From Escherichia phage vB_Eco_F27, in sequence record OP870146.1: a stretch of DNA of 64,000 nt. One strand, written 5' to 3'. The stretch's first letter is position 1, and every line of letters starts with the position of its first letter. This document shows, in pieces, positions 13,412 to 43,029 of this stretch. Position numbers and translations under genes: made by a program. The notes beneath the pieces are model-generated. The model had not been told where the DNA came from. It did not search any database and saw nothing but the letters and a program-made list of their open reading frames with translations.

Positions 13412-13882
13412 TTAATCATGTTTCCACACCCCATCGGTATTTGACCAAAGTCGCTGATTATCTGATCCTCGCCACAGCTTTTTAGTCGGAAGATTTTTCT
13501 CATACTTCCCATCAATAATAACATCAACATATTTAAGCATTTCTAGTTGTTTAATATCTTCAAACTTATATCCTGTCCACAACCAAATGCTTTTATTGGG
13601 ATAAAGATTTTTTACTGTTTGAACAATGCAATGAATAACATCTCGGTTATCAGGATAGAGAGGGTCACCTCCGGTTATAGTTAATCCTTCTATATAATCA
13701 TTATTCAAACATTCAATTAATTGTTCTAGTGTTTCACCAGTGAATGGAACACCATTTCTAGCATTCCATGTTGATTTATTATAACACCCTTCGCATTTAT
13801 GCAAACAACCCGTAACGAAAAGAACGACCCTGCATCCAGGGCCATTCACAAAATCGCAAGGATAAAATCTATCATAATTCAT
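13412..13882 (-). CDS. nrdG: anaerobic ribonucleotide reductase activating protein (radical SAM)
   Basis: 156 aa; CxxxCxxC-like cluster GCLHKCEGCYN; immediately downstream of nrdD. Confidence 0.9.
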   Translation of the reverse strand: MNYDRFYPCDFVNGPGCRVVLFVTGCLHKCEGCYNKSTWNARNGVPFTGETLEQLIECLNNDYIEGLTITGGDPLYPDNRDVIHCIVQTVKNLYPNKSIWLWTGYKFEDIKQLEMLKYVDVIIDGKYEKNLPTKKLWRGSDNQRLWSNTDGVWKHD

Positions 13883-15160
13883 TGGTGTTTAACCCTATGC
13901 ATGATTTCTTTATTTTTACCGAGATTAAATCCGCGTTCGTTCGGATTTCCCAAATAACCACATGTTCTTCTTATTGTGTTCATCTTTTTAGGATCAGTTT
14001 CTCCACAAATAGAACAAACAAATCCGTTTTCAGTAGGAGTCATTTCATGGGTACTTCCACATGTAAAACATTTATCTACTGGCATATTAACACCAAAATA
14101 ATCTAAATGTTGTGCAGCATAATCCCATACGGCCTCAAGGCCTTTCAAGTTATTTTTCATATCAGGAAGTTCAACATAAGAAATGTGACCACCTGTCGCA
14201 ATGAAATGATATGGCGCTTCACGAGAAATCTTTTCAAACGGAGTAATATTTTCTTCTACTGAAACATGGAAACTGTTAGTGTACCAACCTTTATCGGTAA
14301 CATCTTTTACGCTTCCATATTTTTCTGTATCAAGTTTACAGAAGCGGTAACAAAGGTTTTCAGCAGGAGTAGAATACAAACTAAAAGCAAATCCAGTTCT
14401 TTCGGACCACTGTTTAAGATGAGCATTCATTTTAGTTAAAATTTCTTGCCCAATATCACGACCGACAAGAATATTCAATTCGTGAATACCAATGTATCCT
14501 AAAGACACTGAACTTCTACCGTTTTTAAATAACTCAATTATGTCGTCATCAGGTTTAAGACGAACCCCGAATGCACCTTCTTGGTAAAGAATAGGAGCAA
14601 CAGTCGCTTTAACACCCTTTAAAGAACTAATTCTACACATCAAGGCTTCAAAACACAGATCCATTCGTTCATTAAACAATTCGATAAATTTCTGTTCATT
14701 GAACTGTGTTCCAATATAAGAATCTAATGCGATACGAGGAAGATTCAGTGTTACAACACCAAGATTATTACGTCCATCAAGAATTTCATTACCGGTTGAA
14801 TCTTTCCACACACTCAAAAAACTGCGGCAACCCATTGGAGAAACAGGAATAGATGAGCCGGTGATAGCTTTATTGTTCTTAGCTGAAATAATATCAGGAT
14901 ACATTCTTTTGCTTGCACATTCTAACGCAAGTTGTTTAATATCATAGTTCGGATCATCTTTATAAAGATTAACACCTTCTTCAACAAACATAACAAGTTT
15001 AGGAAAAATAGGAGTTATTCCATCACGACCAAGGCCTTTAATGCGGTTTTTAAGAATTGCCTTCTGAATCATTCGTTCAGTCCAGTCAGTTCCCGTACCA
15101 AATGTAATTGTTACAAAAGGCGTTTGACCGTTTGAACTGAAAAGTGTATTTACTTCATCA
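13879..15160 (-). CDS. nrdD: anaerobic ribonucleoside-triphosphate reductase NrdD, exon 2 (5' boundary approximate)
   Basis: Class III RNR C-terminal region with Cys-rich C-terminus. 3' splice site placed by length inference about 25 nt below the I-TevII stop; not determined exactly. Confidence 0.75.
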
Positions 15161-16197
15161 TTATATTCAGCATGAGTCGCAAATTCATGCCCGTTTATAT
15201 GAAACAACAAAATTTGGATAGTCCATAGATATGCAACGTTCTTTTATAGTGCTAGGATGAAAATTTAGCGCTTTAGCTGCTTCTATATAAGACGTATACT
15301 TAATACCGTCAACAACCACATATTCAGGAACTTTATGAATAGTAGTCTTAATACTCAAAACAAGAGGATGAGTTTCGACTTCACTTTCAGTGCAATTTAA
15401 ATATTCCGCTGCTTTTTTAAAACTTCTAAAAGTTTTATTTTTAAGCTTTATCGATACTTGTTTTTTACTTTTTCGACTATTGATATTATTTTGCACATGT
15501 TCCTTAGATCTTCCGTTTTTAGCATAATATTCAGCTACAGAAGATTTTATATTGTTTTTATGAGATTCGGATAACACTTTACCCTTATGAGCATCTCTTA
15601 ATTTTTGAATATGTTCTTCAGTATCCGGATGCTTATAAAACTTTTTACCGCCTATGGATTTATTTAAACATTTTTTGCTATAAAAATATTTACGTATGAC
15701 CTCTTCTTCATGTTTTAATGCATCTTTATAACTATCAAATGTTTTTAAAATTATCCATTTAGTAGGTGTATCAGTTTTTAAGCGTTCATTTATATACTTA
15801 GATGACGTTGTGTAAGTTTTCCAGTTTGTGGGCTTGTTTTTAATTGTTCTAAATTTTTTATAACCGATATAAATGTCGCCATTAGAAAACTTAACTAAGT
15901 ATGTAAATGCGTCTTTATCTTTTATTTTAGTACAACGTCTTTTATCCATTTCATTGTTTCACCTCGTATTCATAAGATAATCTTATTTATACAAGATGAC
16001 TGCTGCATGTCGCCATGCAGATTAGACTATATCTTCATCTTTCGATGCCGGTCGTTTCGAATAGCATTAGCTTCTATTCTACACCGCTACATTCATCACG
16101 GTTAGTCGTTAGGCATTTAGTTCAAAAGAACATTTAGCACGGGATTGTCTACTAGAGAGGTTCCCCGTTTAGACCGGTTTTACATGAGCCTGAATTA
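15161..16197 (-). mobile_element. group I self-splicing intron in nrdD (boundaries approximate)
   Basis: Exon 1 frame hits a stop at 16195-16197, followed by AAACGGGGAACCTCTCTAGTAGACAATCCCGTGCTAAAT, a sequence I recall from T4 group I introns, then an embedded endonuclease ORF. Confidence 0.8.
15185..15949 (-). CDS. intron-encoded homing endonuclease I-TevII (GIY-YIG type)
   Basis: 254 aa; ...FTYLVKFSNGDIYIGYKKF... and basic C-terminal DNA-binding region; lies inside the nrdD intron as in T4. Confidence 0.85.
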   Translation of the reverse strand: MDKRRCTKIKDKDAFTYLVKFSNGDIYIGYKKFRTIKNKPTNWKTYTTSSKYINERLKTDTPTKWIILKTFDSYKDALKHEEEVIRKYFYSKKCLNKSIGGKKFYKHPDTEEHIQKLRDAHKGKVLSESHKNNIKSSVAEYYAKNGRSKEHVQNNINSRKSKKQVSIKLKNKTFRSFKKAAEYLNCTESEVETHPLVLSIKTTIHKVPEYVVVDGIKYTSYIEAAKALNFHPSTIKERCISMDYPNFVVSYKRA

Positions 16198-16740
16198 AAT
16201 TAACTCATACGCCTGGAACGCGTCATAGACATCTTTTTCTGTTTTAGATTGAGCATAATTCAACGCATCAGCGATTTGCCATTTTTCTGCATCTTCAACA
16301 TGTTTAGCGTATGTGCGTTTAACATAAGGAGAAAGTACTTTATCGACATTCGCAAATGTAGTTCCGCCATACTGGTGTGAAGCAACTTGTGCAGTAATTT
16401 GTGCCATAATTGCAGTAGCAACGCCAATAGATTTAGGCGTTTCAATTTGAGCATTGCCTAATTTAAATCCATTCTCAAGCATCCCCTTTAAATCGACCAA
16501 ACAGCAATTAGTAAACGGAAGAGCAGGAGAATAATCAATATCATGCATGTGAATGATTCCGCTTTCATGCGCATTCATAATAAAAGACGGGACCATATTT
16601 TTGGCAATGTGCTTAGACACAATACCAGCCATAAGGTCCCGTTGAGTTGGAAAAACACGAGAATCTTTATTAGCATTCTCGTTCAAAAGATCTTTATTAG
16701 TTTTATGAATTAATCCTTCAATTTCTTTTTCAATTTTCAT
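16198..16740 (-). CDS. nrdD: NrdD exon 1
   Basis: 181 codons MKIEKEIEGLIHKTNKDLLNENANKDSRVFPTQRDLMAGIVSKH... ending at the intron. Confidence 0.8.
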
Positions 16741-17210
16741 TTTAAACTCTTTCTAAGCTGCTTTTTGAATGAAGCTATTAATTGTGTTTTAGTATCAGAT
16801 TCATTATATTCAAATCCTCTTTGAAGCATCTCGGCCATCATTTCCTCTTTACCTAGTCTTGAGAACTCTTTAGTTTTGTCTGGAACAAAATTAGGATGGA
16901 TATTATTAGCAGAATAATCTTGTTTCAAATAAGCAAGAAGAGCTTCAAGCCATTCGAGGTAGTCGACATCACGACCTTTAAGACCAGAACGGTTGAACTT
17001 ATGCTTCATTTGTCCTTCTGCTGCGTTGCACAGAGAACAGAGTAATCCACGAACTCTACCGGCTTTTGGCCCGTTTAATTCATGGTCGTGGTCAAGATGG
17101 TTACCTTGAACATCAGGGTCTAATTCACGGTGGCAAATAGGACACTTACCGTTCTGTGCATCATAAAATTTTTGTTTTTCTTCTTTATATTTTGCGCCTG
17201 ATAATAACAT
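16737..17210 (-). CDS. 49: endonuclease VII (Holliday junction resolvase)
   Basis: 157 aa; CPICHRELD...HLDHDHELNGPKAGRVRGLLCSLCN zinc/HNH-like core. Confidence 0.9.
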   Translation of the reverse strand: MLLSGAKYKEEKQKFYDAQNGKCPICHRELDPDVQGNHLDHDHELNGPKAGRVRGLLCSLCNAAEGQMKHKFNRSGLKGRDVDYLEWLEALLAYLKQDYSANNIHPNFVPDKTKEFSRLGKEEMMAEMLQRGFEYNESDTKTQLIASFKKQLRKSLK

Positions 17211-42777: not shown

Positions 42778-42854
<77 letters not shown>

Positions 42855-42954
42855 ATGATGCGGCTTTGGGTGTTTCAGTGTTACTCGTTTGTAGGTTCTA
42901 CTTTTAACCCTTATTCGAACAACTTACCTACCTAAGAGCGTACTCACCGCGAAT

Positions 42955-43029
42955 TGGTGGCCCTGGCTGGTTTCGATCCAGCTACCTATCAGTTATGAGC
43001 TGACAGCTCTCCCATTGAGCTACAGGGCC
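42955..43029 (-). tRNA. tRNA with CAU anticodon (Ile2-type or Met)
   Basis: Hand-folded: acceptor GGCCCTG/CAGGGCC, D-arm GCTC-AATGGGA-GAGC, anticodon stem GTCAG/CTGAT with loop CTCATAA, T-arm GCTGG-ATCGAAA-CCAGC, encoded CCA. Confidence 0.75.

Follow-up and report, generated by a model that had tools for sequence, protein, structure and literature searches.

A probable T4-type group I intron in nrdD of Escherichia phage vB_Eco_F27, carrying a sister gene of I-TevII with a displaced start codon

Organization of the nrdD locus

The window, i.e. the whole stretch of DNA analyzed here (64,000 nt of Escherichia phage vB_Eco_F27, record OP870146.1), comes from a T4-like phage (Tequatrovirus) in which nrdD is divided into two exons by an insert that carries a long ORF. 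All of the nrdD, intron, and ORF features lie on the minus strand (Table 1). The 3 kb from 13800 to 16800 show 95.3-97.0% identity to the Tequatrovirus records listed, Shigella phage JK45 being the best match at 97.0%. The start codon of nrdD (ATG 16740) overlaps the end of gene 49, which encodes endonuclease VII, and nrdG follows directly after nrdD with an overlap of 4 nt (13879-13882). The free-standing HNH gene mobC, located between nrdD and nrdG in T4 (L001, 2907-3539), is absent from the window.

Table 1 Features of the nrdD locus in the window, ordered along the minus strand where possible.
Feature	Position	Strand	Description and basis
nrdD exon 1	16203..16740	-	538 nt = 179 codons + 1 nt; Pfam NRDD 138.9 bits, profile positions 1-141
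Group I intron	15159..16202	-	1044 nt; starts UAAUUU, terminal G at 15159; alignment to T4 and JK45
Catalytic core including P1	16003..16234	-	Rfam RF00028; match begins inside exon 1
P1	16209-16202/16190-16183	-	U.G pair at splice site: U16203 with G16189
Exon-1-frame TAA stop	16195..16197	-	in P1 loop, ahead of core; sequence
P3	16177-16172/16053-16048	-	
td-identical stretch	16132..16173	-	intron nt 30-71, P3 5′ strand end through P4, P5, P6 start; blastn 42/42 to T4 td
P4	16168-16163/16144-16139	-	
P5	16158-16156/16150-16148	-	
P6	16138-16137/16114-16113	-	
P6a	16131-16128/16123-16120	-	
P7 (GACUA/UAGUC)	16107-16103/16029-16025	-	by hand from sequence and Rfam alignment
P7.1	16102-16098/16087-16083	-	
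P7.2	16079-16075/16063-16059	-	
Window-private substitution A	16052	-	G in JK45, 215Ecol030PP, BYEP01, and contigs L007-L010
P8 (CAUC-GAAA-GAUG)	16047-16044/16039-16036	-	by hand from sequence and Rfam alignment
P9	16018-16014/16009-16005	-	
Hairpin sequestering the Shine-Dalgarno	15959..15999	-	-17.3 kcal/mol, z -5.5, 0/200 shuffles as stable
T4 late-promoter motif TATAAATA	15984..15991	-	in 5′ arm of the Shine-Dalgarno hairpin; motif search
Shine-Dalgarno GAGG	15962..15965	-	7 nt before ancestral ATG, 12 nt before open-frame ATG
Ancestral ATG (15954-15952) and dead-end frame	15922..15954	-	10 codons, MKWIKDVVLK-stop; translation
I-TevII-like GIY-YIG/NUMOD1 homing-endonuclease ORF	15185..15949	-	254 codons, uninterrupted, from overlapping ATG; ORF list
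A4 run	15940..15943	-	A5 in 43/43 full-length relatives; one-base deletion, frame shifted
3′-terminal intron hairpin	15169..15191	-	7 bp, 15191-15185/15175-15169; folds of window and T4
nrdD exon 2	13879..15158	-	1280 nt; Pfam NRDD 411.3 bits, profile positions 145-562; Gly_radical 90.8 bits

The splice sites were placed by alignment to T4, in which nrdD is annotated as a two-piece CDS with a 1033-nt intron. The 5′ splice site falls after U16203 (GAGU/UAAUUU) and the 3′ splice site after G15159 (AUAAUG/AUGAAG), and since the bases differ on both sides of each boundary, the junction has no room to slide and is unambiguous. In-silico splicing (16740-16203 joined to 15158-13879) yields an 1818-nt CDS encoding a 605-residue NrdD with an intact glycyl-radical domain, which matches T4 NrdD at 598 of 606 positions, the stop counted. 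A 300-nt query spanning the spliced junction aligned to intronless nrdD without gaps from 1 to 300, with at least 80% coverage in 615 phage records. The splice sites, the restored frame, and the match to the intronless allele together define the intron as the 1044 nt from 16202 to 15159. The intronless junction sequence, which would be the homing target, reads AGGCGTATGAGT/ATGAAGTAAATACACTTTTCAG.

These results bear out the central claim of a preliminary description of this DNA, namely that a group I intron interrupts nrdD: the insert has a significant Rfam match (see below), its excision restores the frame, and it occupies the T4 nrdD (sunY) site. The limits given there (15161-16197) were close, being off by 2 nt and 5 nt from those established here. 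It was also correct in stating that the exon 1 frame runs into a stop, as a TAA (16197-16195) sits 6-8 nt into the intron, and a stop occupies the corresponding codon in the T4 nrdD (sunY) intron.

In many GenBank records, this place holds two CDSs named "ribonucleotide reductase large subunit", as if nrdD were a disrupted pseudogene, or two separate genes, without any intron. We consider this extremely unlikely: the group I core is complete, with a terminal G and, at the 5′ splice site, a U.G pair; exact excision yields a 605-residue protein with intact glycyl-radical domain; and in the T4 record the homologue is given as one CDS joined from two pieces. In annotations, a single CDS joined at 16203/15158 should replace the two "NrdD" CDSs. 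An intein was also considered and rejected, as the insert contains an RNA core and interrupts the host frame with stop codons.

Structure of the group I RNA core

A focused Rfam scan of 15000-16400 returned a complete match to RF00028 (Intron_gpI, model positions 1-253) that scored 73.1 bits, where the gathering score is 50, with an E value of 2.7e-18. A scan of the whole window at the gathering threshold returned two tRNAs only and missed the intron core. The only two tRNA genes found in the whole window are Arg-TCT and Met-CAT (42778-43029, minus strand); the tRNA cluster of T4 comprises eight genes.

The preliminary description had proposed folding the 5′ core, and the core spans the first ~200 nt of the intron. 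RNAalifold, applied to the window and T4 nrdD introns, gives 54 pairs, 14 of which are kept with both sides changed, although two lineages only make for thin statistics. The helices P1, P3, P4, P5, P6, P6a, P7.1, P7.2, and P9 are all recovered in this way. P7, a pseudoknot, is beyond the reach of RNAalifold, and P8 was misaligned between the lineages by MAFFT; both helices were read by hand. P2 is absent, and two hairpins, P7.1 and P7.2, separate the 5′ strand of P7 from the 3′ strand of P3, which presumably assigns the intron to subgroup IA2 (T4-phage type).

Compensatory differences between the window and T4 nrdD introns occur in P3, P4, P6a, P7.1, P7.2, and the 3′ hairpin. They affect 5 of the 10 pairs of P7.1 and P7.2 and, as we read the two sequences, four pairs out of seven in the 3′-terminal hairpin, which have changed on both sides yet still pair. 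The 5′ arm of this last hairpin also holds the TGA stop of the ORF. The G-to-A substitution at 16052 converts a U.G pair of P3 to U-A.

The last full codon of exon 1 is GAA in the intronless allele of Escherichia phage AlbertHofmann (L004) and GAG (16203-16205) in the intron-bearing alleles. In P1, the G of the GAG codon is paired to the internal guide sequence, and the difference is consistent with co-conversion or with selection for P1 pairing.

The endonuclease ORF and its relatives

As the preliminary description stated, the intron contains an uninterrupted 254-codon ORF (15949-15185) of the GIY-YIG type. Its product matches Pfam SegE_GIY-YIG (PF19835, residues 8-99) with 26.7 bits, a small margin over the cut-off of 25, Pfam NUMOD1 with 25.3 bits, barely over the cut-off of 22.8, and PHROG 314, "homing endonuclease", with 97.3 bits. 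A PDB sequence search with the protein found no match, even at an E value of 10, and the single-sequence AlphaFold model (mean pLDDT 46, pTM 0.24) was too poor for use.

The identification of this ORF as I-TevII itself did not stand. The protein is 56% identical to T4 I-TevII over 252 residues (E 2e-99), and the intron is 66% identical to that of T4 over 1025 nt. Residues 3-254 match the ORF of many JK45-type phages with 100% identity. At the protein level, the phage collection holds 44 records of the JK45 type with at least 95% identity and about 25 records of the T4 type at 56%, the other relatives being remote (33-36% identity only). At the DNA level, there are 43 full-length introns of the JK45 type (99.2-99.8% identity), along with two derivatives that have lost most of the ORF; the T4 type is represented by 25 copies that are at least 99% identical among themselves. 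No T4 record is found among the 43 full-length intron matches, and the window intron is not a near-identical copy of the T4 nrdD intron. Given the 56% protein and 66% intron identity to T4 and the 43 close relatives, the window element represents a lineage sister to the classic T4 one.

The JK45-type lineage is already in GenBank, in dozens of genomes, and is loosely annotated: "homing endonuclease / I-TevII" is the annotation for Shigella phage JK45 (MK962757), SHSML-52-1, HY03, and vB_EcoM_F2. Short survey-type records of the Sandegren and Sjoberg 2004 era are missing from the full-length DNA matches listed. The sole survey-type record among the protein matches listed is nrdD of phage U5 (AY262145.2; 57% identity, residues 39-254), a protein about as distant from the window's ORF as T4 I-TevII is.

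The closest well-studied system is T4 nrdD (sunY) with I-TevII, which shares with the window the gene and the exact insertion site (GAGU/AUGAAG), the order of the core first and then the ORF between P9 and the 3′-terminal hairpin, the exon-frame stop in the P1 loop, and the combination of TATAAATA and a Shine-Dalgarno-sequestering hairpin upstream of the ORF. A conserved stretch, TATGAATACGAGGTGAAAC, upstream of the ORF is also common to both. The alignment to this intron suggested in the preliminary description gives the same site, but not near-identity. The window intron is slightly longer (1044 vs 1033 nt), its P4-P5 module is td-like and not sunY-like, and its start codon is displaced. The T4 td intron, with I-TevI, belongs to the same intron subgroup, matches the window at 42/42 nt across P4-P5, and encodes an endonuclease of the GIY-YIG family. 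However, td is another host gene with another site, and its ORF lies inside the core region, a short way past P4-P5, whereas that of the window follows P9. I-TevI shows 24% identity to the window's ORF protein in alignment.

A one-base deletion at the start of the ORF

The window and JK45 introns show two differences only, A for G at 16052 and A4 for A5 at 15940-15943, and the latter changes the start of the ORF. All of the full-length relatives (43/43) read ATGAAATGGATAAAAAGACG, whereas the window reads ATGAAATGGATAAAAGACG; the base is missing four codons after the ancestral ATG. The JK45 and T4 proteins both begin with MKW at the ATG equivalent to 15954, and in the window the reading frame from the family's own MKW start codon is not maintained. 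The open frame starts at an overlapping ATG (15949), 5 nt downstream, which extends the Shine-Dalgarno spacing from 7 nt to 12 and gives an N-terminus of MDK (254 residues) in place of MKWIK (256 residues) in the relatives. The next in-frame Met is residue 242. The ORF, which had been described as apparently intact, is thus indeed open for 254 codons, but it has lost its ancestral start to the A5 to A4 deletion.

The exact 254-residue product was found on four other contigs (L007-L010) from different samples, namely two Logan SRA runs, one ENA assembly, and one NCBI GCA assembly, all sharing the A4 run. Their flanks are 95.6-99.6% identical to the window, and their introns are identical save for 16052. 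GenBank has the product as well, under WBF80344.1 (Escherichia phage vB_Eco_F27). In IMG/VR, a scan for the exact A4 sequence pattern gave no match.

A one-base change in a homopolymer that reads A5 in 43/43 full-length copies of the curated phage collection could come from a sequencing or assembly error, the real gene being a normal one of 256 codons. We judge this very unlikely, because the same product occurs on four independent contigs from different samples with distinct flanks, it is deposited in GenBank, and a run of 4-5 bases is short for a systematic homopolymer error. The presence of A4 on four other contigs with different exon flanks indicates instead a real circulating allele.

Two further candidates were rejected. 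The apparent sharing of the A4 run by phage BYEP01 (100% over query 1-47) is an artefact, as a large deletion joins repeats there and makes this copy uninformative on A4. A programmed frameshift was also dismissed, the A4 run being too short for slippage.

Expression signals of the ORF

The Shine-Dalgarno sequence of the ORF lies in a stable hairpin, and the T4 nrdD intron has an equivalent Shine-Dalgarno hairpin of -15.6 kcal/mol. The late-promoter motif alone is not above chance, with 8 found vs 8.4 expected in the window; its position is conserved with T4, and the value of the motif rests on that position. In T4, the intron ORFs are controlled by a late promoter together with a hairpin that hides the Shine-Dalgarno (PMC2988022), and the td intron has the same style of control as the window (PMC2988022).

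Control of the ORF in the window seems to follow the T4 scheme. In read-through transcripts, both early and middle, the hairpin would form and keep the Shine-Dalgarno hidden. The late promoter lies within the 5′ arm of the hairpin, so late transcripts would lack this arm and would have the Shine-Dalgarno exposed. In this copy, protein would be made only from ATG 15949, with a poor 12-nt spacer and competition from the ancestral ATG, and our reading is that the endonuclease is at best weakly expressed.

Of the 20 nt immediately upstream of the ancestral ATG (15955-15974, minus strand; TATGAATACGAGGTGAAACA), 13 agree with the homing site (TATGAGTATGAAGTAAATAC). In T4, the target site resembles the intron sequences on either side of the I-TevII ORF (PMC3984707, PMC2988022).

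Probable spread, and decay, of the JK45-type intron

The intron is 99.2-99.8% identical in the 43 records, whereas the surrounding 3 kb are just 95.3-97.0% identical. In an alignment of six copies, the intron (1044 nt) has only two variable positions, compared to about 40 in the flanking 200 nt on each side. This contrast, visible at the sequence level, is as expected for recent horizontal spread.

Several relatives carry damaged ORFs. That of vB_EcoM_F1 is split into fragments of 57 and 189 residues and that of 236Ecol005PP into fragments of 123 and 130 residues (tblastn in two pieces in both cases), and a 130-residue fragment occurs on 14 contigs (same 90% cluster). Together with the ORF-deleted introns, these split ORFs indicate that the lineage shows the usual decay series of homing endonucleases. 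The ORF-deleted introns are those of Escherichia phages 215Ecol030PP (L005, 1450-2060) and BYEP01 (L006, 1450-1930), which keep the core and the 3′ end. The deletion in BYEP01 fuses two short direct repeats, ATAAAAAGACGTTG at the ORF start (ATAAAA(A)GACGTTG) and ATAAAAGAACGTTG near the ORF end.

The decay of these sister copies, split in vB_EcoM_F1 and 236Ecol005PP and deleted in 215Ecol030PP and BYEP01, raises the question of whether the endonuclease gene of the window is already dead as well. The intron would then be a splicing-competent but immobile passenger, and only the recency of the mutation would account for the long ORF still being there. In favour of this, the ancestral ATG has been put out of frame, and the ATG that replaces it, with its 12-nt spacer, overlaps the better-placed ancestral one. 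On the other hand, five assemblies that differ in their flanks share the A4 allele, the 762 nt of ORF are free of any second lesion, and the change at the N-terminus is confined to residues before the first predicted strand. A dead gene is, in our view, quite plausible, even if we lean slightly against it.

The occurrence of the A4 allele in five exon backgrounds argues that it persists or spreads. Nevertheless, this distribution could reflect ordinary recombination or recurrent slippage, rather than homing.

A td-like module in P4-P5

The 42 consecutive matches to T4 td extend over a region in which the T4 nrdD intron shows only 77% identity to td, and the rest of the window intron, outside 16132-16173, is not td-like. 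Such a run has a probability of roughly 1e-4 at a background identity of ~80%, and we tentatively read it as the trace of an earlier gene conversion event involving the td and nrdD introns. The P4-P5 module suggests, from sequence comparison, that gene conversion between different introns may take place in wild phages. To our knowledge, domain shuffling between T4 introns has otherwise been seen only in laboratory selections, such as those reportedly described by Bryk and Belfort in 1990.

A split nrdD is also found in Vibrio phage 1.084.O (L011) and in the Vequintavirus phages YP-6 (L012) and 241Ecol014PP (L013), which are unrelated phages. Segments of their intron cores show 80-84% identity to the window intron over ~120-130 nt, and these introns contain different ORFs (HNH or winged-helix), located upstream of the matched core.

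Discussion

Very probably, in our view, the nrdD insert is a T4-phage-type, self-splicing group I intron, located at the T4 nrdD (sunY) site and carrying a sister gene of I-TevII. By analogy with the family, exogenous guanosine would attack after U16203 in the U.G pair of P1, and the freed exon 1 would then attack after the terminal G (15159). We read splicing as intact in this copy.

The homing step would follow the usual course, in which the enzyme would cut an intronless nrdD in a co-infecting phage, which would acquire a copy of the intron during repair. T4 I-TevII cuts ~13-15 nt into exon 2. The intron was called likely mobile-competent in the preliminary description; with its displaced start codon, the chance that the window copy may still home by itself is, in our estimate, about even. 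Tentatively, and with the balance of probability somewhat against it, we propose that A4 may be a natural restart variant that still drives homing at low expression, and/or that the P4-P5 module may have arisen by natural gene conversion between td and nrdD. A restart variant that still homes would, if real, explain the identical frameshifted intron in at least five exon backgrounds.

Textbooks have covered mobile group I introns in nrdD of T-even phages since the late 1980s, and the window intron is an ordinary element of a well-understood type. It carries little weight for biology at large, and its uses lie in annotation, evolution, and enzymology. Concerning annotation, any I-TevII label on the intron ORF should be a qualified one. 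Concerning evolution, intact ORFs, a displaced start, frameshift-split ORFs, and ORF-deleted introns co-exist in one intron lineage, which provides a snapshot of the homing-endonuclease life cycle. Concerning enzymology, a second I-TevII lineage, with 56% identity and the same target site, offers a natural comparison for site recognition by GIY-YIG enzymes.
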